DNA of 64,000 nucleotides from Glaucostegus cemiculus. Its lineage: Eukaryota. Of the stretch, positions 10,935-61,399 are shown one piece after another. The notes under the pieces are model-generated. The model was given only the letters and a program-made list of their open reading frames with translations. It did no database searches and had not been told where the DNA came from. Where the stretch lies: positions 29,822,001 through 29,886,000 of the forward strand of contig CDPCPM010000037.1 in the NCBI GenBank assembly GCA_976551045.1, given 5' to 3'. The number at the start of each line of letters is the position of its first letter. The first letter of the stretch is position 1. Made by a program: the position numbers and the translations under genes.

Positions 10935-11292
10935 TCCTGACCTGAAACATCGACTGTCCATTTCCCTCCATAGATGCTGCCTGACCCGCTGAGTTCCTCC
11001 AGCACTTCTTCTGTTCATCTTCAGCCCTTTGTCACTTCTACCTTTCACCTTCCAGCTTCTGACATCACTCCCACTCCCTCCTTCAACTGCCTATCACCCT
11101 CCCCCTTCACCTAGATCCACCTATCACCCACCAGTTTTTGCTCTGCTCCTTCCCTCCACCCTTTTATACTGGCAATGTCCCCTCCTTCTCTCCAGCCCAG
11201 ATGAAGGGTCTCGACCCAAAATGTCAGCTGTCCATTCCCTCCATAGGTGCTGCCTGACTCGCTAAGTTCCCCCATTCTTTTTGTATTGCTCC
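10935..11292 (+). mobile_element. Penelope-derived element with direct terminal repeats and degenerate hammerhead motifs
   Basis: The unit ...gaaacatcgactgtccatttccctccatagatgctgcctgacccgctgagttcc occurs at about 10945 and again at about 11218, flanking a pyrimidine-rich core. Hammerhead-like motif at 11193-11230. Confidence 0.7.
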
Positions 11293-13652
11293 ATTCTCAA
11301 TAGCTTTATTTAACTGGCATCACTGGTCTGCATCATGGGGAACTAACGTCTGACCTTCTAAAATTGCTGAACATTTTGATTTGACCAGTTGCTTGTTGCT
11401 TCCATTCAGAGCAGGAGTCTCAGAATCGGGAGACACCAGAATCACACTTACACCAGACCAGAAGGTTGACAGGTTTCTTTCAATAAAAAAGCTAATAAAC
11501 CTGTTGAGTTCTTTTTACAATTTGGCAGCTTCGTGGCCAATTTTAATCAGTGACAATTTTTTTTTGTACTTGAAAAACTAAAACTGAACTCTAATCTTCA
11601 AACAATTATAATGGAATTTGAACAAAAGACAGGAAAAGCCGGAAACACTCAGCAGGTCAGGCAGCATCTGTGGAAAGTGAAACAGAGCTAATATTTAGGT
11701 CAAAGACCCTCCAGAATTGTGGGACCTGAATTCAAGTTCTCTGGGTTACTGGTCCGGTAACAAATCACCACATGACCCTGCCTTGATTATCAGAAGTTAG
11801 TTGGTTATTGAATCTTTAAATGGAAGATTGGGGTTAAGATAATTTGCAATCACTGAAAAATTGACTGGTTAAGGATTCTGTTGCATTGGTAAAGCAAGGT
11901 GAAAGCACAAACATACAGCTCAACTTTCCACAGACTAACTCTCTATGTATCATTTGGGGATGCAATTATTTCCCCTTCCTTTGTTTTGCAACCTTTCACA
12001 GCAAGACAGAATGACACCAAAACTCAGAAAGAAGCGTCAAGCAGTCTCCCAAAATATATCGACAATCATAACACGTCAATTCATCTGATCCACTTCCTTT
12101 GGAGTAAATAACTCCCTTCAGTAAGAACTTTAACGTCAGGTCTATGCAGATCCCCACTCTAGACAAAGCTCTGGAAGACTTCATTGACTTAATGCCACTA
12201 ATGGTACAGAGATAATTGGCCATGGTCAACAAGAGGCAATGGTGACTAGGTGGACACTTCGGTGGTGAAGGTGAGGGGACCAATGAAAACAGTGAACCCA
12301 GGATTAAAAAGGTCATTAAGAAGGCAGTTGGTATTAGTTCAGATTCCCGTGTGGGCAAGGATGTTGTAGGTTAGAAAGAGAGACTACCATCCGCTTGGAT
12401 GAGCAATTGATAGGCTCCTTCAAATGGAATTCATTGGAAAAAAAGAACATCATTGCTTTAACTTTAGAACATGGTTCTAAAACCAACAAACAGACATTAG
12501 ATAAGCTGACTTTATCGGGAGGGACTTGGCATATGCACTGGGGCCAGATCTAGCAAAGAAGTCAGGTGCAGATAATATGACTGATGGAGATAGTTCCAGT
12601 GAGGATCCTATTGCCTTAAATGTTCTGATATTAGTGAGGCAAATAATGCAGCTCCAAGGGTGAGAACAATCCAGTGGACAACATTGATAGTGCTGCATTT
12701 GAAGAAGGTATCAGGGGAGATAGTATTTCTATTTTCCAATTGTTGAATGAAGCTAGTATATTACCTGATAAGAACCCTATGTGTAGTAAAAGCAAATTTG
12801 GCAGTTTGACGGACAAGACTGTTCACCTACTTGCCAAGAGGCATGTGAAGCCTAACAAAGAGGTAATACCTAATATGACTTCAAAGTGTGAAGACAGATA
12901 AAAGAAGGGAGCTCTTCAATTCCAGGGCCATAGAGAGATATGTAAGGAGCAAGGTGGGAGTTTATGAAGGTTCAGGAATTGTATAAAAAGAATAGGACCT
13001 CTCTGGACTAGGATATTACAAGTGCAGGTGAGAGAGACCAGGAATGCAGGAGGTATGCAAAAAGAACTTCTTGATCTGGTGAGAAAAATCCAGAGTACTC
13101 TGTAAACTTATCAACAATTCTTTACAAAACTGGCTAGACAAAGGCAATTATATCCATTTAATCCTGAAGCACTTCCCCAGTGAAATAGATTCAAGCAGAA
13201 AATGGTCGAGCAACTTGAGTTCCAACCCTAGTCAGGGTAAGTTAAACCCACATAGCGGACTATTGCGGGCTGGAATAGGCAGGTGTGGTAGAAGGTTCAC
13301 TACTTCCCCATTGGCACGTGAGCATTTCAATTTGCCTGAATGCATTCAGAAAGCAAAGCAAGCACTGGGGTTCTACTAGCCAATGTAACTGAGGCTTAGT
13401 TAGGAAGGAAAGCAAATGGCCAAGCTCATTTACACATTCCTAAAAAAGGCGAGCTAAGCAGAGACAAGTAAGAGAAGGTCCCAAATGACGTGTCCTTGTC
13501 GGAGCATGGAACAACTTTTATTTGAAAAGAGCTACGCTCAGAACAAAAAGGCCAGCTAAAATGAAAACCTTGTGCGGTGAGGTGCACAGTTTGTCCAAAG
13601 TTATTGTTGACGTCATCTGACTGACCCGAAACGCCCGGTTTCCTGAAGTGGT

Positions 13653-13902
13653 TTAGTAGTTGAATTGGCGTCGGGGTGGCTGGTACACAAAGTTGCCTTG
13701 GTGTTTGGTCCGGTGGGAACGACACTCCCTTGCAAGGTTCTGCCTCTGAATTCTGTTGCGGCTCAGCTGGCGTTTTTCAACCCGTTGTTTCGCCCGTTGG
13801 ATACGGCGGACCTGGTTTGCCTTTTCCAAGATGCCAGTTCGTCCTAACACTGCTGCAGGAGCTGGGGGTGCCCACCGTTCTACCCTGGCCTGAGCCGTGT
13901 TT
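13653..13902 (-). CDS. TP53INP2: TP53INP2 last coding exon: NTAQARVERW...LEKANQVRRIQRAKQRVEKRQLSRNRIQRQNLARE...FVYQPPRRQFNY*
   Basis: Acceptor ctcttgctctctttgtag| (AG 13904-13903) fits the phase-2 donor. Basic C-terminus ending RQFNY* resembles TP53INP2 (LEKAGQVRRLQRA...QRQFNY). Total CDS 118+331+250 = 699 nt = 232 aa + stop. Confidence 0.93.
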
Positions 13903-14061
13903 CTACAAAGAGAGCAAGAGAGCAGGTTTCACATTTTGTCTGCAATCATAGAGTTTTCTAACAGAGAGACAGGATTCAGCCCATTACATCCACACCATTG
14001 TTTCTCTGGTAATGTGCCATATGCACATTGTAAATCTGAGCTATCCCTCTGACTGTACAGG

Positions 14062-14390
14062 AACACAGAACATAGAAAAACCACAGCACAATTCAGGCCC
14101 TTTGGCCCACAAAACTGTGCTGAACTTGTCCCTACACTAGAAATTACTGGGCATTCCCATAGCCCTCTATTTTACTTAGCTCCATGTACCTATCTAACAG
14201 TCTCTTGAAAGACCCTATCGTATCCGCCTCCACCACTGCTTCTGGCAGCCCATTCCACGCACTCACCACCCTCTGAGTAAAATACTTTCCCCTGACATCT
14301 CCTCTATATCTACTCCCCAGCACCTTAAACCTATGTCCTCTTGTGACCACCATTTCAGCCCTAGGGAAAAGCCTCTGACTATCTATCCGA
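14062..14390 (-). mobile_element. Young CR1 (HER1-like) LINE 3' fragment
   Basis: ORF 14144-14353 TRGHRFKVLGSRYRGDVRGKYFTQRVVSAWNGLP is the CR1 ORF2 C-terminus. Confidence 0.88.
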
Positions 14391-14614
14391 TAGGAAGCAT
14401 AATAAAAACTTTTTTTTTCATGTTTTCTCTATTTCCTTATGACACAGAAGGAATTTATTCAGCATATCAAGTCTATAGTAGCCCACAGAGCAATCTCATT
14501 CCCCTACTAATTTTCCTTATAGCCTATTCACACATTTTCATCAATTCTACCATCAACACTAATACACTAGAGGCAAATTATGGTGGCCAATTAATCTACC
14601 AAACCTCACACCTG

Positions 14615-14880
14615 CAGGCATGGTAGTGTAGCAGTTAGCGTAACGCTATTACAGTGCCAGCGACCCGGGTTCGATCCCATCTGCTGTCTGTATGGAGTTT
14701 GTACTTTCTCCCCATGTCTGCTTGGGTTTCCTCCCACGTTCCAAAGACATATGGGTTTGGAAGTTGTGGGCATGCTACGTTGGCGCTGGAAGCGTGGCGA
14801 CACTTGTGGCCTGCCCCCAGAACACTCTGCAAAAGAAGCATTTTGTGGTGTGTTTTGATGTACAATAAAGATACCTTATC
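14615..14880 (+). mobile_element. V-SINE type B (non-CR1 tail) inserted into an older minus-strand V-SINE (about 14420-15020)
   Basis: tRNA head and V-domain, then ggaagttgtgggcatgct...gcccccagaacact...aataaagata. The flanks are the two halves of an older SINE. Confidence 0.8.
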
Positions 14881-15433
14881 TCTGGAATATGGGAGGATAA
14901 CAGGGAACCCGGAGGGAAACACTTACAGTCACTGGAAGAACATGCAAACCCCACACAGACAGGCACTGGAAGCCAGTATTGAACCTGGGGCCACTGGAGC
15001 CATGAGGCAGCCGTGTCACTTGAGGCTGAAGTCACCAGAGCAAAAGGCATGAGAGAATTCAAATCCTACCACTCAAGAGATTCTCGTCTATAAAGCCGCT
15101 GGACTGGCGTTTAGTGACACCCTCTGGTTCTCTCACACTTGTCAGCAAAGGAAGGAAATTTGCATCTTTACCCAGCCTACATATCTCTAGAGTCAGAGCA
15201 AGGTGATTCACACTGAAATGCCCTACACTTTAACATAGGCAGCAAAAGCCAAACTTGCTGCCAATTCCCACATCCACTGAAGGAATGAAAACTAAATGCT
15301 CATCCCCTAATATACAGAAAAATTGATTACTTTTAAATATTTTAAAACTTCAAGTTTCAAAGAAAGAATTTCTGATGAAAATGATACTTTTCCATCATTA
15401 ATGTTAATCTCTTCTAGTGGAAACAACCCTTCA

Positions 15434-15821
15434 AGACAGAGAGACAGAGAGACAAGAGAGACAAGAGAGACAAGAGAGACAAGAGAGACAGAGAGACAAG
15501 AGAGACAAGAGAGACAAGAGAGACAAGAGAGACAAGAGAGACAAGAGAGACAAGAGAGACAAGAGAGACAAGAGAGACAAGAGAGACAAGAGAGACAAGA
15601 GAGACAGAGAGACAAGAGAGACAAGAGAGACAAGAGAGGCAAGAGAGACAAGAGAGACAAGAGAGACAAGAGAGACAGAGTGACAAGAGAGTGACAGAGA
15701 CAGAGAGAGAGAGAGTGACAGAGACAGAGAGACAGAGTGACAGAGACAGAGAGACAGAGTGACAGAGACAGAGAGAGAGAGTGACAGAGACAGAGAGAGA
15801 GAGTGACAGAGAGAGACAGAG
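15434..15821. repeat. Compound micro/minisatellite: (GAGAGACAA)n changing to (GAGACA/GAGTGACA)n
   Basis: Tandem 9-mer array seen directly; it explains the low-complexity ORFs 15307-15950. Confidence 0.97.
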
Positions 15822-16433
15822 ATCTACTACAAGGTCTCCCATCCACACAACCTTACCAGCTCTAAAATGGGGAGTAGGTGGCTGCCACAACCTCTGACAA
15901 ATGCAACCTTTATCCTTGGTAGCTTCCATGTGAATCCAAATAATTTTCACCTCTTCCTTTCTAAGTGTGAGGGCTATACGTCAAATACATTTGCATTTCC
16001 TTTAAGAGCAACTCCAATTTCTTTGGGTTTTAGTTGTCTTCTGGCAGGGTTACCAGAGGGAGTGGGGGAGGGATGGATGGAACAGATCCAAGGAAACTCC
16101 CAGCTACAGACACTGCTGGCAGTTAACATCACTTCATTTAGAATACAATATATGTTTTCAAAAGTGACTGCCAAATAGCACATACTATAAAAAAACTGAA
16201 TAGGAACATCTATTAAAAACTATTTCCCTCTGATAAATAAAGGATGACAACTAATAGATGTGAATTTATTCAAAACACATCCAGAACATTGTAGGTAGGA
16301 CATAAGGTATTTATGCATGAATTCTATGATAGTTGTGGAGGGGATTAGTGACATTATAAGCATATACTTTTAGAAAAGTACAGTTCAGTTTACTTAAGGT
16401 GGCTAATGTTCCCAAGGCCAACAGCTGGAATGT

Positions 16434-19794: not shown

Positions 19795-20400
19795 TCAGTT
19801 CAGTTTCAGTTTTATTGTCACTACCATATACACATACAGTATGCATAGAAGCGAAATACTGTACTCCACAGGTCAAGGTGCTCGATACATTAAAAAAAAG
19901 AGAAACAGACACTGAGAAACACAAAGACAGAGAGACACTAAAAACATTAGAACCACAAAATTAAATTATACAACTTAAATAAATAATCTTAAAGTGAGTG
20001 TACTGGCAGCGGACATTTAAAGTGCTGGTGCGTTTCTGTACGCCTAGCATCCTTTAGTGTTGGCGGGAGTGATGGAGGGATGAGGGAGTTCACAGTTCTG
20101 ATAGCTTGTGGGAAGAAGCTATTGCACAGTCTGGTTGTCCTTGCCCGGATGCACTGGAGCCTTCTTCCAGACGGCAAGAGTGTGAAGAGACGGTAGGAGG
20201 GATGAGAAGGGTCCGACATTATATTTGTAGCCTTCCTAACACATCGATCCTTATATATATCTGCAATAGAGGGTAGAGAGACACCTATGATCTTCTCCAC
20301 CGCTCTCACTATTCTCTGGAGGGACTTCCGACCAGCAGCTGAGCAGCTCCCAAACCAGATAGTGATGCAGTGTGTTAGGATGCTCTCAACGGTCCCTCTA
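19795..20400 (-). mobile_element. Rex1/Babar-type LINE 3' fragment
   Basis: ORF 19989-20309 ..DPSHPSYRLFTLLPSGRRLQCIRARTTRLCNSFFPQAIR is the Rex/Babar C-terminus; short tandem-repeat tail. Confidence 0.85.
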
Positions 20401-21204
20401 TATCTCCGGTCCCTCTATATCTCCAGCAAGTTCTGCATTAATTGGCCTCCTCAGATGCCACTGAGAATGTGCTGGTGGGCTGCTATGTAGAGCTCCCATG
20501 GTCGTAGCCTGAACTGAGCTGGGAAGTGAAACTATCTCAAAGGAAGCGCAAGAGGGAGAGGTCAATGAACCCAAAAAGATTAAAAGTAAATATGTGTTTA
20601 AAAACCAGCAAGGTTACTGTGATATCCTGCACTGCTGATATTTAACTGCCACACACACGTGACATTTCTTCTTGGCTCATTCATCTTCACATATAATATA
20701 ATCAGCTCTTTTAATCCTTTTACTATCTAGACCAGATGACCTTGATATGAATATAGGGCAAGATTAACGAACATTATATCGGATTATTGTGTGAGCTATT
20801 TTACGACCAATGAACAGCAGTTCATTTTTGTGGGGGTTTTATTTGAAGTAAAGTGCTTCCTATGCTGCTTTAATTTTTTGCAATTAAGTTCATCTGGAAA
20901 TGTTGCTAAGCATTTATTAAATTAGTTAACCCACGAGTGACCATCAGATGAAGGACAAATCTCAATCTTACTTTGTGTGTGTCCATTTGGAGACCGTTTG
21001 TTGGGCTGCTAGCCATATCCTTTGTTGGTTCCTGCACCCCCAAAGATCTCCAATCCCTGAGCAGAGTCTTAACAGCAGGACCTTTATTCTGAGTAAGTAC
21101 GTTTACAAATCAAATGTTTTAGAGCGGCAGCTGTAATAGAACTGGAGACTGTGATAGGGGTGAGAAGGAACAGATAGGGACAAGCACTAAACAGAGAGAA
21201 GACA

Positions 21205-22385: not shown

Positions 22386-22394
22386 AAATTCATA

Positions 22395-23290: not shown

Positions 23291-23339
23291 TAAAAACCCC
23301 GAGCAACCAGAGAAAGTTGCAGAGGCTTCGAGTGAAAAT

Positions 23340-24250
23340 GAATACGGACAAATTGAATGAGTGGGTAGGAACACAGCAGAGAGAATAGAATTTGGAAAAA
23401 TACAAGGTCATTCACTTTGGTGGACGTAACAGAAACAGTGGGAGATTGGATAGTGTTGATGTGCAAAGGGACTCGAGTGCGCTTGAACACAAGTCAGTGA
23501 AGGCAACAAAGGGTTACAAAAGTATGTTGGCCTTTATTATGAGAACATTAGAAAGCAGGAATAATAACAATGCATTTGTACAGAGGCTAGGTGAAACTGT
23601 ACAAGGACTACAGAGCTTTGGTCTCCTTTCATTAGAACGGATGTAATGCACCATAGAGGGAGCGCAGTGAAGATTTACTGGACTGTGTCTAAGGATTGCC
23701 ATACAAGGAGAGACCGAGTAACCTGGGACTGCCTTTTCTAAAGTTTATACCAAGGAGATCTCATTGAATTCACAAAATTCCTGAAGGATTTGACAGGCTA
23801 AATGCAGAGAAGATGGTTTTTCTTGGCTGAAGAGTTCAGAACCAGGTTTACAGTAGGGTAACAAACAATCTGCTGGAAGAACTCAGCGGGTCAAGCAGCA
23901 TCTGTGGGAGGAAAGGAATGGTACGGTTGACATTTTGGATCGAAATCCAGCATTAGGGCAAGATCCTTTCCTCCCACAGATGCTGCTCAACCCACTGAGA
24001 TCGTCGAGCAGATTGCTTGTTGCCCCAGGTCCCAGAACCTGCAGTCTCTTGCGGCTCCAGTTTACAGAAGGGCAGGCTGCTTAGGATTAAGAGGAGACAT
24101 TTCTTCACTCGGAGGACGGTGAACCTTTCGAATTCTCTCCTCCCGAGGTGGCTGTGTTCATTCAAAGCAGAGTCTGATAGATTCTGCACTGAAGGAGTAG
24201 AGGGATATGGGGATAGTGCAGGAAAATGGCTCTGACATGGAAGATCAGCT
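23340..24250 (+). mobile_element. Old CR1 fragment interrupted by a Penelope-derived foldback (23856-24060)
   Basis: KYKVIHFGGRN and RRHFFTRRTVNLSNSL remnants on either side of the foldback. Confidence 0.7.
23856..24060. repeat. Penelope terminal-repeat foldback (inverted arms about 23856-23918 and 23962-24026)
   Basis: gggtaacaaacaatctgctggaagaactcagcgggtcaagcagcatctgtgggaggaaagga is inverted relative to tcctttcctcccacagatgctgctcaacccactgag...gcagattgcttgttgcccc. Confidence 0.8.
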
Positions 24251-27363: not shown

Positions 27364-27659
27364 GGGCAGGCATGGTAGCTTAGCAATTATTGTAACACTA
27401 CTACAGCACCAGAGACCCAGGTTCAATTCTGGCCACTGGCTGTAAGGTGTTTGTACGTTCTCTACATGTCTGCGTGGGTTTCCTCCGGGTGCTCTAGTTT
27501 CCTCCCACATTCCAAAGACGTATGGGTTAGGAAGTTGTGGGCGTGCTATGTTGGTGCCAGAAGCGTGGCGACACTTGTGGGCTGCCCCCAGAACACTCTA
27601 AGCAAAAGATGCATTTCACTGTGTGTTTCGATGTACGTGTGACTAATAAAAGACATCTC
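27364..27659 (+). mobile_element. V-SINE type B
   Basis: Full head, V-domain and type-B tail (tgcatttcactgtgtgtttcgatgtacgtgtgactaataaa). Confidence 0.85.
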
Positions 27660-29061: not shown

Positions 29062-29471
29062 GGGCAGGCACAGTAGTGTAGCAATTAGCATGGCGCTATT
29101 ACAGTGCCAGCAACCCAGGTTCAATTCCGGCCACTGTCTGTAAGTAGTTTGTATGTTCTCCCCGTGTGTCTGTGTGGGTTTCCTCCGGGTGCTCCAGTTT
29201 CCTCCCACATTCTAAAGACAAATGGGTTAGGAAGTTGTGGGCGTGCTATGTTGGCGCCAGAAGCATGGCGACACTTGTGGGCTGCCCCCAGAACACTCGA
29301 CGCAAAAAGGTGCATTTCACTGTGTGCTTTGATGTATTGGTTTATCATTATCACTTGTACCGAGGTACAGTGAAAAAAAAACTTGTCATGCATATTGTTC
29401 GTACAGCTCAACTCATTACACAGTGCATTGAGGTAGTAAAGAGTGCACGTGTAACTAATAAAGATATCTTA
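29062..29471 (+). mobile_element. V-SINE type B with an antisense Rex/Babar 3' end (about 29337-29444) inside its tail
   Basis: SINE tail breaks after gatgta (29336) and resumes at cacgtgtaactaataaagatatc. Confidence 0.8.
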
Positions 29472-33225: not shown

Positions 33226-34474
33226 ATTGGGACCAATACCCATCGTGATCAGCTGTTATCCCCGTTCTCAACCCTGCAGTTGAGCGAGGCTGGTTAAACA
33301 TGGGTGGTACTTAAAGCAACTCCAAAACACAAATACAATCACTATACATGTCCAGTACCATCAGGAAATAGACCAAAGATTCACAAGACTGACTGGGACT
33401 TGGTGAGGAACAGAGAGATGTGAAGGCATTGTACCACAACACCAATGGGCAACAAGACTGAAGACACCACCGTTCCAGTTCCGATAAAATATTAACTGTA
33501 TTTCTCCACGAATGCTGCCCAGACAGCTGAACATTTCCAGCAATCTCTGTTCAATTTCAAGTTTCCAGCATCCACTTTGTTTTTTGGGACATTAGCTTTT
33601 CCTTAGACAGTCCCCTGGTTCAAGGACGACTCGTGTGCATTATAGTTCAGGGGGTTCCAAGGCAGCCACAGTGTCCGGTGCGAGGGAGGGACACGGAGAA
33701 CTCTAGGGGCCAGGACGGGTGGACCGATCAGGTCCCTGCACCTTCCTTCAGCTGCTCATCCTTGGTTCCTTCCAGAGGGTTCAGTGAAGGCCAGCTTCGA
33801 GGGTCTTGGGACAGGAATTCCCATTAGTCAGTCAGGATATCTTTACCATCCCAAGGAGGTGATCTTGAGGACACCCCTGAAGTCTTTCCCCATCCCGGAA
33901 AAAGCTTGCTATAGCTGATCTCAGAGCGTAGTGCTGCTTTCGGAAAGCTGGAGCCCGATAGATGTACGATGTGGCCCACCCGTCAAACCTGTGCAGCTCT
34001 GATCAGAGTCTCAGTGTTGGGGAGAAGACAACAACGTTGCCTCTCCTACTCTGCCCGTGGATTTGGAGGATTTTGTAGAGGCAGTGTTAGCATCTCCAGT
34101 GCTATCAGATGCCGGCAGTGCTCACTGCTCACTGAGCAGCAGTCAGCTTGGTAAAGTCCTGGTCTTTAAAACATCTTCCCCCCTCCCGACGACCAACTAA
34201 AGGCTGATCGAGAAGTAGATTTCATCGCCAGTATCAGCCTTTGCCAAGGAGTCTCCTAAGAAGTGGGACATGTTCCCTGTTGACCAGGTTTTCATGGATC
34301 TTGATTGCTGTGGGTTTCTTTTTTTTTTGCAGGGTTGAGGTTAGGGTGTAATTTGTAGTGTGTTACCTTCCTTCACTGGTGTTGAAGGACTTGGGTCTTT
34401 CGGATATTTAACACGAAGCCCATTCACCTGCACACTTCAGGTGAAGGAATCACTAAGGACTCTCACCGTAAAGG

Positions 34475-34718: not shown

Positions 34719-35295
34719 GAATCAGATTTATTATCACTGATATATGATGTGAAATGTGTTGTTTTACAGCAGCAATACAATGCAAGACAAAATTCTATAA
34801 ATTATAAAAATAATGCACAAAAAATGAGTTCTATAAAATGAATAGATTGAGTGGGTGAGTGGATAAAATTAGTTCTATATATAAAAATGAGTTTTTACGA
34901 TAATAAAAAGAAAGTAGTAAGAAGTTATGGGTTCATGGACTGTTCAGAAATCTGATGGCGGAGGGCAAGAAGCTGTTCCTGAATCGTTGAGTGTGGGTCT
35001 TCAGGCTCCTGTACCTCCTCTCCAATGGTAGTGAGAAGAGGGTATGACCCGGGTGGTGAAGGTCCTTAGAGATGGATGCTGCCTTCTTGAGGCGCTGCCT
35101 CTTGAAAATGTCCTTGATGGCGGGGAGGGTTGTGTCTGTGGTGGAGCTGGCTGAGTCTACAACCCTCTGCAGCCTCTTGTGACCCTGTGCATTGGAGCCT
35201 CCGTACCAGGCGGTGATGCAACCAGTCAGAATGCTCCCCACCGTACATCCGTAGAAATTTGCAAGAGTCTTTGGTGACATACCAAATCTCCTCAA
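34719..35295 (-). mobile_element. Rex/Babar LINE 3' fragment; right member of the tail-to-tail pair
   Basis: ORF 34933-35295 LANFYGCTVGSILTGCITAWYG...RLQRVV...RRYRSLKTHTQRFRNSF. Confidence 0.88.
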
Positions 35296-35959
35296 TCTCC
35301 AAGCTTACACATGTTTTGTCTGCACCATTTAGATAAAGGCCAGAGTTAATTGCGATCTTGGTTCTGAAATGGAGGTGAAGTTTGAACAATTTCCCACTTC
35401 CGGTAGACTTGCACCATCCAGTGGGAACCTTGTTGGAGGCAATATGCAACATTAGCGAGGAAGACTGAGAAGTTTATTCAGACAATCACAGCCTTTTCAA
35501 CCGTTTGTCATGGTGGGGTAGCACTGAGATTGTAGTGAATAGCAGGCTGAGAATAGGGACCAAGGTACTCATGTTAGAGACAAGAGTCTTGGTCGAGGAG
35601 ATCTTCAAAGTGCTCCTTCCAGCAGGTCCTTGGTGAATTCTTTTGTTTTTGGATCAGGTTGGAGTCCACGGGTGTTTAATCCTTAGATGGTCTTGACAGT
35701 GCTGAAGAATCCACTCATTTTGTGGTTATCAACCAAATGAGGTTCTCTCTCCACCCACCATCTGCTTCTCAGTTAAGAAGATTTTTTCTTTAGGTTGGGT
35801 TTTGACCTTCAGATGCCTGCAAGTCAGTTTTCTCTCCCCAGTGCAAAGGCCCAATAACATGGTACATTGGCAATTTATTAGCTCCTAGGTCTCCTGGTCA
35901 CTCTCCGCAGACCAATCCTATTGTTTCTGGTAAAGGGACTAAGAGACGCTTGACTAGAG

Positions 35960-36480
35960 GAGCAAAGGACTGCAGATGCTGGAATCTAAATGAAAAAACA
36001 CGATGATGCTGGAGGAACTCAGCAGGCCAGGCAGCATCCGTGGAGAAAAGCAGGCGGTCAACGTTTCGGGGCAGGATCCTTCTTCAGGACTGAAGGTAGG
36101 AAGGGGGGGCGGGGGGGGAAGACCAATATATAGAAGGGAAAAGCAGAGCAGTGATAGGTGGACAAAAGAGGGGAGGTGGGGTGGGCACAGGGTGGTGATA
36201 GGTAGATGCAGGTAAGAGATAGTGATAAGCAGGTTCAGGGGAGGAGGGGAGAGCAGATCGTCCGGGGGATGGATCAAAGGTAAGGAGAGAGAGGGGAAAA
36301 AAGGATAGGGAAAAAAAAGAGAGGTAAGAAAAGCAGCATGGTTGGGGGGGGTGGGGGGAGGTGTGGGGATTACTTAAAGTGGGAGAATTCAATATTCATG
36401 CCGTTAGGCTGCAAAGAAAGGCAGACAGTCAACATTTTGGGTCAGGACCCTTCTTCAAAACTGAAGATAGGAAGGGGGGT
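35960..36480 (-). mobile_element. Penelope-like element 3' end: ORF C-terminus between two hammerhead-bearing direct repeats
   Basis: Minus strand at about 36418-36371 reads LQPNGMNIEFSHFK*, resembling the end of a Penelope GIY-YIG domain. Repeat units at 36426-36463 and 36055-36092. Confidence 0.75.
36055..36092 (-). ncRNA. Minimal type I hammerhead ribozyme motif; core intact, stems imperfect
   Basis: RNA CAGUC-CUGAAGA-A-GGAUCCUGCCCC-GAAAC-GUU-GACCG has the CUGANGA and GAAA boxes and an NUH triplet; stem I is GUC/GAC. Confidence 0.6.
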
Positions 36481-37370
36481 TTTCTTCAAGAGATGCTTCA
36501 CACTTGCTGACTGTGCTAGACTTTAGGGCACACCAGGAGCCTTGGACACATTGTCTCTCCTGTTGGTTGGGAAGCACAGCCTGTGAAGTACTGACTTCTT
36601 GAGATCTCCTTGAGATCTTCAGCGGTGAGTTTCCGTTGCAATTCCTACGTAGGGACCAAGTTAATGGTTAAGTAGTGGTTGGTCTAGCAGATGTCAAAAC
36701 CTGTCATGGCACAGGTGACGTGGACATCCTCGCTGCCCATCAACTAGGGCATAACCTGTTAGTGCCCGAGTCAAGAGCATTTCACTTGCCTCCCTGATGG
36801 AACAGGGTGTTGGTGAAATCAAGCAAGACCACCTTATGAGCATTTTGTCATAGAGTCACACAGCACACCACCCCTTTGGCCCGACTCGTCCACACCAACC
36901 AAGAAGTTCATCTAAGATAGTCCCATTTTCCCGCATTCCTCCAAACCTTTCCCTTCTATGCATCCGTCCAAACATCTTTTCAATATCGTTATCATACCCA
37001 CCTTCCTCTGGAGGGGAGGACTTGGAGTTACAACAAGCAACACCTGAGGTTTCTACCGCTCCATGCCCTTTAAGAAAGTGTTCTACTTGTAGACTGCCAA
37101 GCTTCACAACCTTTCACACTTTTATCATTTCCAAAGACCCTAAAGCGGTGGGTATCCAAAGTGAGCTTCAAACCATCTCGGTGTCAAGGGTTTTTTTGGA
37201 AGTGCAAATTTGATTTGGATTCATAGATATATTTGTGGTAATAACAAATGGGTCTTTGTACTTGACAAGAACATTTTTTCTGATTAATTTGAAATAGAAT
37301 TCATTTTTTAAAAAATATTCCCATAATGAACCCTACTATCAACGACTGAGATTACGTGCTTCAGACTCAC

Positions 37371-38000: not shown

Positions 38001-38259
38001 ACAAAAACATCAGTATTAAACTGTGGGATTAAGTACACCATACTGCAGGGACTCTATTTAAATTTGTTAACAATCACACACTCTGGGGACGTAATCAGAC
38101 TTGACATGGATTAGGGGATACCAACTCTGGCTGGTTGTATTCCTGGTGATTTCATCATGTGCTCTCCTATTGCTGGTCGCAATGATATATCCACATCCTT
38201 CCCAGGCTTATCAAAAAGCACAGACTATTCTGAATTACGGCTGAAAATACTAGAAACAC

Positions 38260-38460
38260 TCAACAGATCAGGCAGCATCTGGGGAGAGGGAAACAGTTAA
38301 TAGTTTAGGTCTGGGACCCTTTGTCAGATGAATCCTTGATCTAAAATGACAATTCCAGTTCTCTCTTCACAGAAGCTGCCTGACCTGCTAAGTGTTTCCA
38401 GCATTTCTGTATTTAATTTCATGTTTCTGGCATCTGCAGTTTTGTTTTTGGTTTTTGGCT
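38260..38460. repeat. Second, more diverged Penelope terminal-repeat foldback
   Basis: gaaacactcaacagatcaggcagcatctg is inverted relative to cagaagctgcctgacctgctaagtgtttc, with hammerhead-like remnants between. Confidence 0.65.
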
Positions 38461-38719: not shown

Positions 38720-39610
38720 TGCGATCCACATCCTGGAACATGAAGCAGGAATCGCCATTTGACCTTTGTGCCCATTCTGACATTCAATAAGATAGTGGCT
38801 GACCTTTTACCTCTGTGCCACTTTCCTGTACTAACCCCAAACTCCTCAATTCCCTTGAAATCCAAAAGATCCATTGACCCTTCCTTGAATATATTCAGCC
38901 CAGAATTCCAAGGATTCACCACCATTTGGGTGAAAAAATCTTTTCATCTCTTATTGAATGGCCCATCTTATACTTGAGACCATAACTTCTGATCCTAAAG
39001 GAAAAGTCATCCCTACATCTACCCTGTAAAGTCCCCTTAGAACTTGGCACATCATCCCTCATTCTTCTAAACTGTGGAGAACTTAAGCCCAAAATGCAAA
39101 CGCAAAACATCAGAAGAACTCAACAGGTCTAGCAGCATCTGTGGAGTGTGAAACAGAGTTAATGTTTCAGATTAATGATCCTCTCTGGAAGAGAGTATAG
39201 GCCTACACTGTTTAATCTCTCCACATGACAAACTCACTATCTTAGTAATCAATCTGGTGATATTTTGGCTGCACTACCCCTGTCGAGTATATTCTTGGAT
39301 GTGGTGACAGACTCATACACTATATTCCAGCTGCATTCTCAAAAGGTCCCTTGTATAAATGAAGCAGTTTGTCTTTATGTGCAGTGAAGACCAACACATC
39401 ATTTCCACTCCTAACTCCATGCTGTAACCTGAATATCAACTTGAAGCAATTTGTGTGCAAGGATGCTCCAACCCCTCTGAACATCTACATCTTCCTGGCT
39501 CTCACCATCTAAAACTCGGGGTTTCAATTCTTCTCCTAACGTGGATGACCTCACTTTTTCCAGATATTACATCTACCACATCCTCACCCATTCACTTAAT
39601 TTGTCTATAT
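38720..39610 (-). mobile_element. Old CR1 LINE fragment with a Penelope-repeat remnant (about 39105-39190)
   Basis: VVNPWNS remnant and CR1-like 3' end. Confidence 0.6.
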
Positions 39611-40134: not shown

Positions 40135-40448
40135 TTAGAAGCTTACCCGTGGTTAAGCACTGTGTCATTTTACAATCATAAGTGGTCATCATATACTTCT
40201 CTTTGGCCAATGAAAAGGGAATAGAGAACAGGAATTCCAGTTATTCTCAGACCCACAGGGGGTGTTGAAATTCCCTTCTCATTGGGTAAATGATGAACAC
40301 TTACGGTTTTAAAATGTTACAGTGCTTAACCACAGGTAAGCTGCTAATTCATACCTTACTCATGGTTGAGTGTTTGTCCTCCATTAATGCATCTCAGTTT
40401 GGAGATGCAATAATGAGGACAAACTCTCAACCATAGGCAAGGTATGAA
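40135..40448. repeat. Two adjacent long imperfect palindromes (40135-40347 and 40348-40448)
   Basis: Manual alignment: hairpin 1 outer arms 62 bp with about 9 mismatches plus an inner 15/16 pair; hairpin 2 arms about 47 bp with about 6 differences and a 6-nt loop. Confidence 0.9.
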
Positions 40449-43824: not shown

Positions 43825-43869
43825 TGATAACCTTCTACACTATCTACAACACCTATTTTATTATCCCAC

Positions 43870-44097
43870 CAGTGTCTGTAAGGAGTTTGTATGTTCTGCC
43901 CCTGTCTGCGTGGGTTTCCTCCAGGTGCTCCAGTTTTCTCCCACATTCCAAAGATGCATGGGTTAGGAAGTTGTGGGCATGCTATGTTGGCACCAGAAGC
44001 ATGGCGACACTTGTGGTCTGCCCCCAGAACACTACACAGAAAGATGCATGTCACTGTGTGTTTCGATGTACATGTGACTAATAAAGAAATCTTTCTT
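43870..44097 (+). mobile_element. V-SINE type B, 5' truncated
   Basis: V-domain and type-B tail. Confidence 0.8.
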
Positions 44098-45169: not shown

Positions 45170-45690
45170 TGTGGACACACACCAAGGCAGACATGAAGTG
45201 CTGCTGGAGGATCATCAACTTGGTGAAAGACGCCCTTTGGTGTGCCTGAAACTTGTTGAGATATTGGTCAGGGAATGTTAGAGACTGATGGAATCTGGAG
45301 CAATACACAAAAAGTGCTGGAGGAACTCAGCAGGTCAGGCAGCATCCGTGAAGGGAAATAAATGGTCGACGTTTCGGGCCAAGGCCCTTCATCAGAACTG
45401 GAAATTAAGAGGGCAGAAGCCAGAATAAGAAAAAGGACCACAGTCTGGGCTCCTTCTGCTACCGCACATGGAGAGGCTGAGTTGGGTGGGGTAGCCCCTC
45501 GAACAATGAAGAAGGCACATCACCCCAGGGGGGCAAATGAGTGGCGTGGTGCTATGTTTATTTGTCTGTCTTTTTCTAAAAAAAGTCTACATTACATTCA
45601 TGGTCATTACATTCAGTAAGAAAGTTTTCTGTACTGCTTTTTTCCTTTGTTATATATTTTTTCATTATGAAAATAGTTCATTTTGGAAAA
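45170..45690 (+). mobile_element. Tx1/L1-like LINE 3' fragment interrupted by a Penelope repeat (about 45283-45435, minus)
   Basis: tgctggaggatcatcaacttggtgaaagacgccctttggtgtgcc = CWRIINLVKDALWCA, a Tx1-like C-terminal motif. Confidence 0.55.
45363..45400 (-). ncRNA. Minimal type I hammerhead ribozyme motif; best-preserved copy in the window
   Basis: RNA CAGUU-CUGAUGA-A-GGGC(CUUG)GCCC-GAAAC-GUC-GACCA: intact core boxes, 4-bp stem II, GUC triplet (predicted cut between 45368 and 45367), 3-bp stem I. Confidence 0.7.
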
Positions 45691-45696
45691 ATAACC

Positions 45697-45990
45697 AATA
45701 TCTTTATTAGCTACATGTACATCAAAACACACAGTGAAATGCACCTTATTGCGTAGAGTGTTCTGGGGGCAGCCCGCAAGTGCCGCCACGCTTCTGGCTC
45801 CAACAATAGCATTCTCACAACTTCCTAACCCGTACGCCTTTGGAATGTGGGAGGAAACAGGAGCACCCGGAAGAAACCCACGCAGACACAGGGAGAATGT
45901 ATGAACTCCTTATAGACAGTGGCTGGAATTGAACCTGGGTCGCTGGCACTGTAAAGCGTTACAGTAACCACTACACTACTGTGCCTGCCC
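45697..45990 (-). mobile_element. V-SINE type B
   Basis: Full-length reverse copy. Confidence 0.85.
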
Positions 45991-46799
45991 CATCCAAAGC
46001 CCTCTCTCTACTTGTGATGCATGTCTTGTCCACCCTGCAGAGCCTTCCCTTGGTAACTGGGTTGAAATAGTAGATGAGAGTGGATACAAAAAACGAGCAC
46101 CAAATCAAAAGTCTTGGGTTCATGGTGTAGGCGGTTCATAGTGACAGAATTACATTCATCCACCTATAATTATTTGTACTGTTGTGAGGACATATTACTG
46201 CAAAATAATGTGATACTCAAAAATCACAATGCAGGATAATGAAGTAATTATACCCATGGAGCAGGGTACAGCTTGAAAGCTCAGAGGGAGAGGGTATCAG
46301 CTGCTTTATAAGAGATGCAATCCATCAGACTCTAGGTTTTGATTCAAGTGCTCAGATAACATCAGCAGAATGATTGGGTGTAAAGTCATCTACAAACTGG
46401 GTGAAGGCAGACTGGATTTCATCTGTGGCACCTTTCACAGCCTCAGGATATGCCCAGTACTGCATCCAAGCAAAGACAGGGGAGCATCAGAGTGTGCTAA
46501 ATGGAGGAAGTGGTGAATACCCAGACTCTAGTCTGCATACAGTATATTACGAGAATGCACCAGGTCAGGACTTAATAGTCCAGGCCATCTCTAGCCTCCT
46601 TCCATTGTCAGCCTAGCGTCACTTGTTGAGTCTCCAAAATTAATCTGTGTGGTGGGATTCCAAAGTAGGAGTTCATTAATCGATCCAATAGGGAATTTAG
46701 GAGCAACATAAGGAAAGCTGGGTAATAGAAAGATTGTGAAGTATAAACTAATATGATTAACTTAGAAATGGGTGCAAGAAGGCAGGTCAGGAGTATAAA

Positions 46800-47093
46800 G
46801 ATAAGATTTCTTCATTAGTCACACATACATCAAAACACACCGTGAAATGGATCTTTTGCGTAGAGTGTTCTGGGGGGCAGCCCACAAGTGTCGCCACGCT
46901 TCCGGCGCCAACATAGCACGCCCACAACTTCCTAACCTGTAGGTCTTTGGAATGTGGGAGGAAATTGGAGCAGCCAGAGGAAACCCACACAGTCACGGGG
47001 AGAACGTACAAACTCCTTACAGACAGCGGCGGGAATTGAACCCGGGTCGCTGGCGCTGTAATAACATTACACTAACCACTAGACTACTGTGCC
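46800..47093 (-). mobile_element. V-SINE type B
   Basis: Full-length reverse copy. Confidence 0.85.
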
Positions 47094-51712: not shown

Positions 51713-51985
51713 GATAAGATTTCTTTATTAGTCACATGTACATCGAAACACACAGTGAAATGCATCTTTTTGCGTAGAGTGTTCTGGGGGCAGCCCGCAA
51801 GTCTCGCCGCACTTCCGGTGGCAAATATAGCACGCCCACAACTTCCTAACCCGTACGTCTTTGGAATGTGGGAGGAAGCCGGAGCACCTGGAGGAAACCC
51901 ACGCAGACACGGGGAGAACGTACAAACTCCTTACGGACAGCAGCCGGAATTGAACCAGGGTCGCTGGTGCTGTAAAAGCGTTCTA
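51713..51985 (-). mobile_element. V-SINE type B inserted in an older V-SINE (about 51610-52190)
   Basis: Reverse head, V-domain and type-B tail; flanks are remnants of an older SINE. Confidence 0.8.
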
Positions 51986-52919
51986 CCAACCACCAACACA
52001 AGAAGGGACAACTTACAATGACCAATTAACCTACCACACCATACAACACGTGGGATGTGGGAGGAAACTGGCACACCTGGCAGAAGCCCACATGGTCACG
52101 GGAAGGACACACCAACCCCACACGGACAGCAGAGGTCAGGACTGAGACCAGGCTGCTGGCACTGAGGAGGCACCTGTGGCGCTATGCCAGCTAATCTTGG
52201 TGCCAGCCCCAGGTCTACCCCCCAGCATCACTGCCCATTCTGGGCGCAGATGTTACACAGTCAGGAGGATTTGCACCACATTTAACTTCAGAAAAGGACA
52301 ATGGCAGATGGGATGCCACCAAAGGGAGGATACTGTGGACACCTACAAGCAGTGTGTTTGAGCTGCTGCTGGTCCCTGCTCATAAATGATGAATAAAGCT
52401 CATTCAGAACACAATAACTTCTGCAAAGCCCAGAGGTCACCACCATCCAAAACTTATTTCCAGCTGACCCGAGTAAAACCCAACACATCGGTATTGGATT
52501 TGATGTCCCTCCGCTAACCATTACCCATAAACTTGGGTGATTTACTGCACTGCATCTACCAATGTCCTTCCTAATGTACCACTCCTAACAAATCTAAATG
52601 CCTGCCTGACCCAAAATGAAGCAACAATGCCGGGGACTGGAACAAATGAGGCATTTTAGCAAGTTTTAAGAGAAAGGCATACAGGATGTCAACAGTGCAA
52701 AACACTAAAGCCGGCTGGGCATCTCCAAAGTCAAAATATTTGCTGCTTTCCTAACTCTGATTAGTGCTGTCAGGATCAGAGCCTTGTGCATGCATACAGT
52801 GCCTTTGCCTGACGTGAAGGCTTCAGTATAACATGGAATTCTCTGCAATTAATCTGGCAGGGCAACACAACAACAGACGATAAAACCAGACAGGCTAAAC
52901 ATGTTTGCATAGTTAACAA

Positions 52920-54149: not shown

Positions 54150-54540
54150 ATAGAACATACTACTGAAGGAACTCAGCAGGTCAGGCAACATCCGTGGAAG
54201 GAAACGGAGAGTTGAGGCTTCGGGTCGAGACCCTTCATCTGTGCTGAAAGAGTAGAGGGGAGAGACAGTACAAAGTGGTGATGGGCAGCGGTGAGGCAAG
54301 AGCTGGCAATCCATAGGTGGATCCAGATGAGGAGGGGTGATTGGCAGATGGAGTCAGGTGGGATAGGGAAGGGTGGAGATAGCAACAAGAGGTGGTAGTG
54401 GAGGCCACAAAGAGCTGCAGATGATGGAAGTTGATAGGAAAGGAAGGTGGAGCATGGAACCCAATAAGGGAGATGGGAACAGTGGGAGGAGGAGTGTGTG
54501 GGTGATGGGCAGATAGAGTAGGTGCAGAAGGGGATTTAGG
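54150..54540 (-). mobile_element. Penelope-derived 3' fragment with a degenerate hammerhead (54207-54246)
   Basis: CAGAUGA-A-GGGUCUCGACCC-GAAG, next to the shared gaactcagcaggtcaggca block. Confidence 0.65.
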
Positions 54541-56399: not shown

Positions 56400-57110
56400 C
56401 GACCACCCAGATGAAAATCAACTCGGAACCAGGTTTTACATAAACCACAGAAAGGGAGGCGGCTCCTTTAAGAAGCATTACGTCATTGTGCGGCTGTGTT
56501 TTATGTTAATAACCTTCACGTCACCTTATTGACTAATCCCAACTAGCCAATACCGGCAAAAATCAGCTGTTTAACAATAGGAGAGCAAATCGGGCTTGAA
56601 TCAAACTGAAAAAAAATATATAAATACTTTGAGCCGGGGAGGAAGGGCTCTGAATGCAAGCCTCCGGGTAACTGTTTCCCAATTTGATCCAAGCACAAGA
56701 ATAAATATAACTAGTACAGTTAATCCGTTTCCGAGTTAAACAGCCCATAGGGGAATAGCAGCTATTTATATAAATTTCAGAACAAGGTCACACTTTGACG
56801 TGCAGCATTGTTGTAATCAACATTTCGAATTGATATACTGAGTTAGTGGGAAAACAAGCTATTTATACAGTGAACGGAGACTGTTCTCCTAGTCGGAGAG
56901 AGTGGGGGGGGGGGGGTCACGGCAATGACAATCATACTATGCGGGATAGTTTCACCAGGAGGTATTTGAAACACGATTCCAGATAGAAATAAAATCCCAA
57001 CACAAAGTATTACGCCAGAAGTGAACATCTCCAACACCCGCACATATTGTTAAATACCTCACACCGACTGCATCCTCAAGTTGCACAAGCGGTTACACAA
57101 GTAGTTACAA
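56400..57110. promoter_or_regulatory. Candidate promoter-proximal intronic enhancer
   Basis: Repeat-free and CpG-retaining. Contains ATTACGTCAT (56477-56486), CACGTCAC, CAAGGTCA (56783-56790), two GCTATTTATA motifs, and paired C/EBP-like TTGCACAA/TTACACAA (57081, 57093). Confidence 0.4.
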
Positions 57111-57255
57111 TGAGAGAGAGAGAGAGAGGAAAAAAAACCTGACCTTATACACAGTGAAAGATGTCACAATACTAGGGGTGAGGGGGTGGCGGGGAGGTGG
57201 GGGGGGGGGAGAAAGAGGTGGGGGATAATTCCAAGTAAACGTTACTTAGGCTTAC

Positions 57256-57390
57256 CTGCCTTCTTCTAGTTGTCAAGTGTCTGCAGTCTGCACCATGGAA
57301 AGAGCACAGCAAACAAAAACAATCAAAGGAAAAACACCTCGCGGGCAGTTGAAGTGAGGTAGAACTATGTAATTCAGCGGAAAGAAGTGC
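57256..57390 (-). other. TP53INP2: Probable non-coding first (5' UTR) exon of TP53INP2; 5' boundary uncertain
   Basis: Consensus donor GGCAG|GTAAGC after 57256, directly downstream of a motif-dense, CpG-containing, repeat-free region. It could instead be a 32-nt internal exon starting at 57287, because a pyrimidine tract and AG precede that position. Confidence 0.55.
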
Positions 57391-57960
57391 AGCCAGCTCA
57401 TTTATTTTAGCGGGGGGGGGGAGAGAGAGAGAGAGATGTTCCTTCTTGGAAAGAAAACTCCCCAGCCACTACCGCGCCATCTGCTCTCCCAGCCCCAGCG
57501 GGTCCCACCGAGTGTATCAGATTTTAGAATGTGACGAACAGCTGATCGGCCTCTGTGAGACCGTCGGGGGAGGTGGTGGGGGGGGGGGGCCACTTTGTGA
57601 CGCAATCCCGGCCTCTCCACCAATCAACGCCGCCTTCTCTCCCCCTCCCACGTGACCTTGCCCTGGCCAATTTGTTTTCAGGTGAGGGAGGATTGAGGCG
57701 CACGGTCAGAATAACACATGATGTCATCTTTTTTTAAAAACAAAATTGGAAATACAACGTTTGAAAAGAAGGATCGACTATGTTTGCAAATAAATGCAGC
57801 TTTTGTTTTTAAGATGTGCCTTCCTTTCTCCCTAAAAGGAGGTTGCTAGGCTGCAGAGAAAACGTCACATAGCTGGAGGTCCCTGGTGTCCACACTGGTG
57901 TTTACGTGCGGGGACTGAGGACCAGTTTGCTCACAGGCCACTGAGTATGGTGTTTGTTTA
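57391..57960 (-). promoter_or_regulatory. Probable TP53INP2 promoter
   Basis: TATA-like ctaaaataaa (57410-57401), TGACGCAAT (57598-57606), CCAAT (57620, 57667), CACGTGAC E-box (57649-57656) overlapping TGACCTTG (57653-57660), ATGATGTCAT (57718-57727), TGTTTAC (57899-57905) overlapping TACGTGC; raised CpG content. Confidence 0.6.
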
Positions 57961-58002
57961 AAAAAAAAGCAGTAGCAGGACGATGATGAATCACCTTGAT
58001 GA

Positions 58003-58577
58003 TAAAGTACATCTTATCTGGTTGTATCACGGCTTGGTACGGCATCTGCTCTGCCCAGGACCGCAAGAAACTGCAGAGAGTTGTGGATATTGCCCAGTGC
58101 ATCACGGACACCAGCCTCCCCTCCTTGGACTCTGTCTTTACCTCTCGCTGTCTCTTTACCGCTCACTGTCTTGGTGAAGCAGCCAGCATGATCAAAGACC
58201 CCACTGATCCAGGACATTCTCTCTTCTCTCCTCTTCCATCAGGTAGAAGATACAGGTGCCTGAGGGCACATACCGCCAGACTTAAGGACAGCTTCTACCC
58301 CACCGTGATAAAACTATTGAACAGTACCCTTATACGATGAGATGGACTCTGACCTCACGATCTACCTCGTTGTGACCTTGCACCTTATTGCACTGCACTT
58401 TCTCTGTATCTGTGACACTTTGTACTGTTACTGTTTTTACCTGTACTACCTCAATGCACTCTGTACTAACTCAATGTAACTGCACTGTGTTATGAATTGA
58501 CCTGTATGATCAGTTTATAAGACAAGCTTTTCACTGTACCTCAGTACAAGTGACAATAATAAACCGATACCAATACC
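58003..58577 (+). mobile_element. Rex/Babar LINE 3' fragment
   Basis: ORF 57996-58340 ILSGCITAWYG..DRKKLQRVV..LPSGRRYR..RLKDSFYP. Confidence 0.88.
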
Positions 58578-59249
58578 TTTAACTCTGCTGCATTTTCAGG
58601 CTTGGGCATATTGGTGATGCCGCAACTTTTTGCTTCACTATTTGTAGGGTACTTTTGGTGGAAAGTCTATTTGCTGCCAGTACTGTGTGGGGCAAAGATA
58701 TTGTACAGTCCCACTTTCTCATTGCCTGAACACACTTGCAAATTATGAAGTCCTCCTTTCTGTTATCATTTTGAATTCCCACTGAAATTGCATCTGTTTT
58801 CTTCCTTAGCCTTGGATCAACAGGTTCCCAAAATGTGAACATTCAGCCAATGTTTTAAACTGGCAGTGCTGTGCTGTATGATGGTCATTGCAATGATAGC
58901 AGTGGACTTAACTGATCTTACTAGTACACTCCTGGTTTGGTTCCATAGGCTTAGACTTTGCTGTGCCTCTTTGACCCTGGACTCTATTTATATCACAGTC
59001 ACTTGTTGAAGACAAAATCCCTTAGCATTGTCGGATACCATTAGCAACACCACAACATTATTGTCATTCACCAAACCACATACACCTACTATGGGCACAC
59101 TCCAAAAAAAAGCACCAAAATCACAATGTAAGGATAAGTTCTTTAATAAGACAATGTCCCTATTAATTGTCGCATCTGCCTCTGGCTCCTTGTCCCAAGC
59201 GTAAAACTTTGAGCTATTTCTAAGGGTTAAATTAATATTCCAGTGACTT

Positions 59250-59491
59250 GTGTTCAATTCTGCCGCTGTCTGTAAGGAGTTTGTACATTCTCCCTGTGAC
59301 TGCGTGGGTTTCCTCTGTGTGCTGCGGTTTCCTCCCACATTCCAAAGTCGTACAGGTTAGGAAGTTGTGGGCATGCTATGTTGGCGCCGCAAGCGTGGTG
59401 ACACTTGCGGGCTGCCCCCAGAACACTCTGCGCAAAAAGATGCATTTCACTGTGTGTTTTGATGCACATGTGACTGATAAAGATACCTTAT
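59250..59491 (+). mobile_element. V-SINE type B, 5' truncated
   Basis: B box, V-domain and type-B tail. Confidence 0.82.
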
Positions 59492-59825
59492 TTCCCTTGT
59501 CACCTCTGGCCCAATTTCCATCTGGAAAATTGCTTTTATACTCTTGTTTTGGGCTCTAATGATATTACATGATATTTTATCTTTGGGAATATTGTTTGCT
59601 TTAAAGAACACGTCAATTGATTTGATATACAGGCTGAAGTGTCCTCAAGCTGGATCATACATGCCAAAGCTCCTGATATAGCCAGTCATGTAGCCGGCTG
59701 TCTCAGTCCTATCGTGCTGCACTCAATATAACTGCACTGTGTAATGAACTGACCTGTATGATCGGTTTATAAGACAAGCTTTTCACTGTGTGAGAAGCTT
59801 GTGAGGGATGCTTGTGAGGAGAGTG

Positions 59826-60082
59826 GGGGCGGCACGATAGCGTAGTGGTTAACGCGACACTGTTACAGCGCCAGCGATCAGGGTTCGATTCCCGTCGCTG
59901 ACTGTAAGGAGTTTGTACATTCTCCCGTGTCTGCGTGGGGTTCCTCCGGGTGCTCCGGTTTCCTCCCACATTCTGAAAGACGTACAGGTAGGTTAATTTG
60001 GGGGTTTAAAATGGGTGGCGCGGACTCGTTGGGCCAAAAGGGCCTGTTACCACGCTGTAAATAAATTTTAAAAATTTAATTT
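59826..60082 (+). mobile_element. V-SINE type A
   Basis: Near-identical to 2206-2485. Confidence 0.87.
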
Positions 60083-61399
60083 ATTCAACAGTGAAACAGC
60101 TAAACTCGGTGTGTCTGAAAATGCACTGATAGATCACACCACTGCCCCTTGTTATTATGGCTTCATATGCTTGGGCACTCTCATCAATACATTAAGGAGC
60201 CTCAGATAAACAAAATTCAAATCAGGAGGTTGAAGGAAACATTCATGAAGTGAACTCATTTAAAGGTTGCCAAATGAGGATCATCAACATCGTTCAACAA
60301 GTCCTTCAACTTCCTCATCGCCAGTTAGAAATGTCTTCAGGATGCATCAAGATACTCTTTATAAATCCAAAAGAGGTAGAGGTTTATTTACAAAAGAACA
60401 CCCTTATTTACATGCTGTTAGAGCTGCTGAAACAGAATATCTGTGAAACAGTCCCATTGTATGAGAAGCAGGCATACCACAAGCTTCTGCTGTCCAATAG
60501 GACCACAGTATAAACATACACATCGATACAGAGAAAGTAGAATATTCCATGTTTAAAGATACATTACATACTGAAATTCTGTCAGTGGAAGGTTGCTATA
60601 TTAATACTGTATGTTCAGTTGGGAGGGCTTTATGTCATGCCATGGGGTAAGATATTCTACAGTATTTCCATATATCAACATATTGTATTCTTATTAGATG
60701 AGGGAGTCGTGTGAAGTCCCCACTCTCTTATTCTGCAAACCCTTTTTTTCTCCCCTCTTCCCTCCCCAGTTCATTCCCCGCACTCCATCCACCAGTCGCT
60801 TGCACTATCTGGGAACGAGACTTATATCAGGGTCATTTCAAGGCCGGATGAAGACTCTCAACCCAAAACGTCGACTGTCCATTTCCCTACATGGATACTG
60901 GGTTCCTCCAGCTCCTTCCTGCCAGTTCAAGGCCACCGAGTGTTCACCATAGGCCAGATCCAACCGACATTGGGCTCACAGCTGCAGTTCCACTCCTGGA
61001 ACCTCTGATTTTTCACTTGAGGGCTGCCGCAACCCAGCCCCATAAGCAGCCTTGCTGCAACGTGCCTTTTCACGGTGATAATGGTGTATAATGTTGGGCA
61101 GGCCATCGCCTGGTACTCTGCTGGTGGTCAGTTATCCCAGAACAGATGCTAAATGTTGGTAGATGTTATTGGGGGAAGGGAGGGTGGTGTGTGGAAAGGG
61201 TGAGGGAGAGCGAGTGACAGAGAGAGAGGATGGTGGACAGAGAGAGAGAGTATGGAGGGTGCAGAGGGAGAGGAACGTTGGGGGATCTGAGTGGGGCTGT
61301 GCTTATTTTTATTCAATCAAAGTCACCAGGACAATGCCAACTGCATCAGATGTCTGTGTGATTCAAACTGCCGATTCCTCTTAAAACTTCTTACTTAAC

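Follow-up and report, generated by a model that had tools for sequence, protein, structure and literature searches.

Decayed Penelope-like hammerhead motifs in a batoid genome, with short copies that likely record a capped, uncleaved RNA 5' end

The window considered here, a stretch of 64,000 nucleotides of the Glaucostegus cemiculus genome (contig CDPCPM010000037.1, positions 29,822,001 to 29,886,000), contains coding exons of the host gene TP53INP2 and, dispersed along its length, remnants of a repeat that carries hammerhead ribozyme motifs (Table 1). A profile built from genome copies gives 16 family members for the window, against none for a reversed sample, and one exact intact-core pattern has 805 matches in the genome and its reversed form has none; thus, the window motifs are not due to chance. 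Each of them sits within a longer repeat, whose downstream part of 60-100 nt is conserved. The motifs are the minimal type I hammerhead of the 3' pseudo-long terminal repeat (pLTR) of a Penelope-like element (PLE), mostly broken.

An earlier reading of this DNA, made from the letters only, had listed six such motifs, and all six are found at the coordinates and on the strands that it gave; the hammerhead pattern attributed to them stands for position and strand, but the catalytic core is intact in only two. The strict test is passed in the window by the motif at 45363-45400 only. The extra A described between positions 9 and 10.1 is borne out (A in 89 of 92 scored copies), and so is the near absence of stem III, an ACGU palindrome occupying positions 15.1-16.1 in the three copies examined; in none of these three is the active dimer the cofold minimum. 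The CUGANGA and GAAA boxes with a NUH triplet are present in the majority of the family, namely in its main subfamilies, and are departed from in the U4A and A9C subfamilies discussed below. The covariance-model check gave no hammerhead match in Rfam at E<=5, and folding of eight motifs (the six of the window and two intact genome copies) found none stabler than shuffled sequences, with z from -1.7 to +1.3.

The proposed Penelope origin is supported by a reverse transcriptase (RT)/GIY-YIG frame upstream of the motif and by the end of an endonuclease inside the window. Loci found by the intact motif have RT, thumb and GIY-YIG remnants upstream; among 20 loci chosen from protein-only match lists, for long frames or for the presence of both domains, 17 have the motif about 300 nt behind the RT/GIY-YIG frame on the same strand (16 behind the main frame, one behind an inverted fragment). 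The other three (L139, L140 and L152) do not conform: one has unrelated DNA in between, in one the motif is 1.3 kb off, and one has no motif. Of 10 long frames, 4 gave Pfam matches to RVT_1 or GIY-YIG; none of these matches reached the curated cut-offs, because all the frames are broken. A CX4CX2C linker is found in three of six frames examined (L001, L146, L150), with a strict GIY-C-C-YIG match in L150, and the element is ordered as RT, CX4CX2C linker, GIY-YIG, pyrimidine-rich untranslated region (UTR), hammerhead and tail. The AUG of the hammerhead core is followed by no more than a short frame in the copies seen. In the window, the last 14 endonuclease codons (36414-36373) and the stop codon (36372-36370) lie between the 36426 and 36055 hammerheads, which are 371 nt apart and form a partial tandem, intronic in TP53INP2 and sense to the gene. 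Among the fetched copies this 371-nt junction is private to the window locus, six sister copies running on into open reading frame (ORF) sequence. Close same-strand pairs are uncommon (16 pairs less than 1 kb apart among 181 copies). As side observations, loci L021-L050 are a single PLE insertion with an inverted 5' pLTR, multiplied inside segmental or satellite duplications, and loci L003-L012 have CAGGC in stem I and kilobases of flank in common.

The linker, together with the cysteines between GIY and YIG, suggests that the element fits the Neptune clade. Passages on endonuclease-positive (EN+) Neptune PLEs in Craig et al. 2021 (PMC8557442) describe RT, a GIY-YIG domain at the C-terminus in which CCHH occurs and two cysteines separate GIY from YIG, and a CX2-5CxxC linker, as well as 5' truncation, partial tandems, inverted copies and an optional tail of 30-40 bp; 5' truncated, partial tandem and inverted copies and an optional tail, all EN+ PLE insertion features, were seen here too. 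Unlike those elements, no intact ORF was found in this family. The motifs resemble the metazoan PLE minimal hammerheads, including those of the fish elements Xena, Poseidon and Neptune, as Cervera and De la Pena 2014 (PMC4209133) present them in part of their paper: type I, without helix III, palindromic at 15.2-16.2, with an extra base between 9 and 10.1 and a G10.1-C11.1 pair, mostly as single dispersed copies and with opposite-strand pairs. The differences are the batoid host, the stem II of 4 bp and the amplified U4A and A9C subfamilies. Such motifs in fish, coelacanth and frog are described there and restated in a passage of PMC6155905; they are said to cut weakly, and as dimers (PMC4209133; review PMC6765202, both in part). 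A literature search returned no specific paper on elasmobranch PLE hammerheads or on this batoid family, and supplements could list such motifs.

A very high copy number had been suggested, and it is supported: 80 evenly spaced stretches of 10 kb on large contigs gave 129 matches, or 1.61 per 10 kb (bootstrap 1.26-1.99), which, if the sample is representative, corresponds to about 4.6e5 remnants genome-wide. This density is far above the 4,000-9,000 descriptor matches given in part of PMC4209133 for coelacanth and Xenopus, which are counts of intact motifs and not comparable. Most copies are broken, as had also been proposed; of the 192 sampled matches in all (dispersed, window flanks and window), 95 span the hammerhead, 17 of these with an intact core and 3 passing the strict test. 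The motif holds four CpGs, one of them at the catalytic G12, and divergence is 41.7% at CpG sites, 7.9% in the non-CpG core and 10.6% in flank columns. The change from GAAAC to AAAAU, previously read as inactivating, is CpG deamination; G12A is found in 26 of the 95 scored copies. These figures fit neutral decay, dominated by CpG sites.

A rival view is that host RNA processing retains the copies as active ribozymes, or that they are tandem retrozymes spreading as circular RNA. The intact-core copies, at least 805, the abundant repeat-matching RNA with some sense bias in the UTR and the retrozymes reported in one chondrichthyan, according to part of a preprint (bioRxiv 10.64898/2026.07.22.740005), speak for such a view; however, the core is not better conserved than the flank, G12 is often lost, the tandem junction is found at one locus only among fetched copies with no tandem arrays seen, and 5' ends avoid the cut site, so that we hold it extremely improbable. 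The animal non-LTR retrozymes outlined in that preprint are similarly related to PLE pLTRs, hammerhead-bearing, non-coding and present as many monomers, but no repeated tandem unit was found here and the copies are nested 3' fragments of coding PLEs. Assignment to the non-LTR retrozymes was rejected, a tandem unit of 150-400 nt bounded by hammerheads not being found and the tandem junction being private.

RNA reads, probably from a related organism, are abundant on the repeat and come from both strands; they neither show nor exclude cleavage. In the region of locus L142, coverage of the 3' UTR by runs X19-X21 favours the sense strand about 3:1, provided that the libraries have the usual strandedness, and inversion joints in the reads cluster at the front edge of the hammerhead. 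A 36473>36115 joint in RNA reads was discarded as a mapping effect of the duplicated pLTR; it is present in the contig run too.

The covariation ascribed to stem II by the sequence-only reading is not significant copy by copy (UA 86, CA 10, UG 6, CG 2; Fisher p=0.23), and the C-G swap in stem I that it noted at 11193 occurs in 1 of 84 scored copies, with the closing pair broken. What is found is one subfamily-level change from C-G to U-A at the stem I pair 2.1-1.1 (p=0.05): the oldest subfamily has U-A in place of C-G as first stem I pair, plausibly by one compensatory event. A change of G10.1-C11.1 to A-U (p=0.03) is confounded by age.

The CUGA to CAGA change, taken earlier for copy-by-copy inactivation, is instead an inherited subfamily state. 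Exact genome matches number 210 for U4A but 112 for U4C plus U4G, and U4A shows linkage with flank alleles (p=3e-6). Within the flank context of its own subfamily, A9C is matched 602 times and the three remaining bases 59 times in all. These excesses, with the flank linkage of U4A, point to states copied from source elements; judged on sequence grounds, U4A and A9C are therefore subfamily traits amplified from such sources. In the A9C subfamily stem I has only 3 bp, and no ORF was found within 1.5 kb upstream of 30 of its loci; its loop II is often UUCG, not CUCG (e.g. L218, L225, L238). Changes at U4 and A9 lower hammerhead activity. The literature search found no cleavage data for U4A or A9C; other natural hammerhead variants are named in a passage of PMC3088659.

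The 5' ends of the copies were mapped with subfamily profiles reaching 110 nt upstream, and 163 of 230 non-anchor copies passed the filters. The statistics do not count loci L021-L050, which duplicate a single insertion, nor the loci chosen by protein match, the pattern anchors, low-scoring copies or 32 copies of the old subfamily. The start falls at -5 to +6, counted from the first C of stem I, in 54 of the 163 copies and, after one more removal, in 53 of 162; 9 of the 162 start around the cut site, and the adjacent 12-nt windows hold 11 and 17 (p=4e-9); simulated uniform truncation places about 6% of ends per 10 nt. The base before AGUCC, when not C, is G in 407 genome matches, A in 238 and T in 307, and G/(G+A) is 0.63 versus a background of 0.39-0.43. 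Among the first copies fetched, truncation falls at that point in 19 of 20 with G, 10 of 10 with A and 5 of 10 with T. Some copies have target duplications of 12-13 bp. The sequence CCAGTCC agrees with the initiator consensus YYANWYY. For L1, part of PMC11702581 reports an extra G as the mark of capped full-length insertions.

Because the 5' ends concentrate along the front edge of stem I and avoid the cut site, and because G is in excess before them, the short copies are likely complementary DNAs (cDNAs) of a capped, uncleaved RNA 5' end. We consider it highly probable that the motifs are decayed hammerheads of the 3' pLTR of several subfamilies of a Neptune-type PLE, with the copies of 100-135 nt likely arising in this way. 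A promoter in the upstream pLTR would make the A of CAGUC the first base of the RNA. Reverse transcription would start internally at the tail, 100-135 nt downstream of the RNA start, and run-off at the cap would yield inserts of 100-135 nt. Cleavage by the ribozyme would need a dimer formed through ACGU, or an element protein, and would take off the first 32 nt; insertion of the short copies likely does not depend on it. Once inserted, these copies likely undergo neutral decay and have no role for the host.

The pile-up could instead arise if the RT stalls or switches templates at the boundary between the purine-rich hammerhead and the pyrimidine tract, and no start site would then lie there. 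Inversion junctions make up 17 of the 54 pile-up copies, and the inversion joints in RNA reads gather at the same edge; the other 37 copies, however, are not inverted, a stop caused by structure should fall at the 3' foot of stem I rather than its 5' edge, and stalling leaves the G excess unexplained. We regard this explanation as rather unlikely.

A pyrimidine tract and a CAG precede stem I in all subfamilies, so that the CAG could also be a splice acceptor and the short copies derive from spliced RNA. In D. virilis Penelope, as described in part of PMC4209133, an intron begins 46 nt after the transcription start, and its 3' end adjoins helix I. Splicing is nevertheless quite improbable, as the one junction tested, from a stop-codon donor to the CAG acceptor, was present in none of the fetched loci and had 0 genome matches; pile-up copies have no upstream exon in common, and their ends centre on 0 to +2, not +3. 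Moreover, the usual consensus for host exon ends would predict A or C before AG, where G is the leading base.

Several points weigh against a capped start at stem I of a Neptune-type element. The 5' ends are spread over about 12 nt; 6 of the 20 copies with G are inversion junctions, and target-site preference or inversion microhomology could be an added source of G. By analogy, the D. virilis precedent makes the position of the pile-up fit a splice acceptor too. Three RNA runs, probably from a related organism, have no piled-up starts or ends, features to which such libraries are insensitive. Neither an intact full-length ORF nor the 5' junction between pLTR and ORF was recovered. The clade is assigned by motif, not by a tree, and Nematis, in part of PMC8557442, has the linker motif in common with Neptune.

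The uncleaved template has a counterpart in the anole Poseidon element PAc, for which a passage of PMC11167929 reports in vitro an internal start of reverse transcription, use of uncleaved RNA as template, and a hammerhead that needs protein and is not required for insertion. Likenesses to PAc are a hammerhead close to the 5' part of the RNA, a tail defined by two 3' ends and an uncleaved template, shown in vitro there and here suggested by copy ends; the PAc ORF starts in stem II, whereas here the core AUG is not followed by a long frame. With evenly divided confidence, we propose that in batoid Neptune PLEs the hammerhead may be the first structure of the capped mRNA, that hundreds of thousands of strong-stop-like cDNAs of the uncleaved 5' end record the start and the cap, that the A9C and U4A subfamilies were amplified with their core changes, and that cleavage may be a decapping off-switch or dispensable, not a template-making step. 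The literature search found no specific paper on a strong-stop or start-site link. The family as such is expected; its value lies in a large fossil record on what PLE hammerheads do, in which copies end away from the cut site, at what is likely a capped start, and two natural variants of the core have been amplified.

Table 1. Coordinates of PLE remnants and host exons in the window
Position	Strand	Feature	Hammerhead or evidence
10929..11015	+	Short pLTR copy, upstream partner in same-strand pair	Start at about +4 of hammerhead, core broken
11014..11293	+	pLTR remnant, U4A subfamily	11193-11230: U4A, G12A
11635..11712	-	Old pLTR remnant	Degenerate
37488-37372, 18712-18380, 13901-13656	-	TP53INP2 coding exons	DOR-family exon and protein match
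23860..24057		Two short A9C-subfamily copies, inverted head to head: minus strand 23860-23957, plus strand 23964-24057	
33487..33549	+	Old, weak remnant limited to the 3' part	
35960..36414	-	PLE 3' end: endonuclease C-terminus, pyrimidine-rich 3' UTR, hammerhead, tail	36055-36092: core intact, but GUU triplet and stem II pairs 2/4
36415..36490	-	Partial upstream pLTR, same subfamily as its 35960..36414 partner	36426-36463: C3U, G12A
38244..38412		Two old short copies, inverted head to head	
39112..39175	-	Old remnant	5' half of hammerhead missing
45278..45431	-	pLTR remnant, ORF-linked main subfamily	45363-45400: intact core, 4-bp stem II, yet stem I only 3 bp
54154..54353	-	pLTR remnant, U4A type	54207-54246, broken: U4A, A15.1G; stem I absent
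60834..60916	+	Short copy starting at hammerhead front edge	60841-60877, broken: U4G, G12A

The product of the middle TP53INP2 exon is 97% identical to sawfish TP53INP2, other rays being the next best matches; thus, the host is a batoid. The window holds other repeats as well. A second very frequent short family, resembling short interspersed elements, is found at 2206-2462, 14617-14863, 27369-27634, 29067-29334 and 43864-44070, with further copies at 45698-47093, 51714-52135, 59262-60083 and 63482-63681. The 3' fragments of a frame like that of long interspersed elements lie at 19958-20414, 34933-35304, 57990-58340 and 61904-62801, one of them matching Pfam ALKBH8_N. An AGAGAC-type tandem array with a 9-nt period occupies 15311-15823, and a hairpin at 40363-40433, with sub-threshold matches to microRNA models, is probably an inverted repeat. 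Finally, positions 1-128 and 600-727 form a 128-nt inverted repeat, 96% complementary with 471 nt between, possibly a miniature inverted-repeat transposable element.

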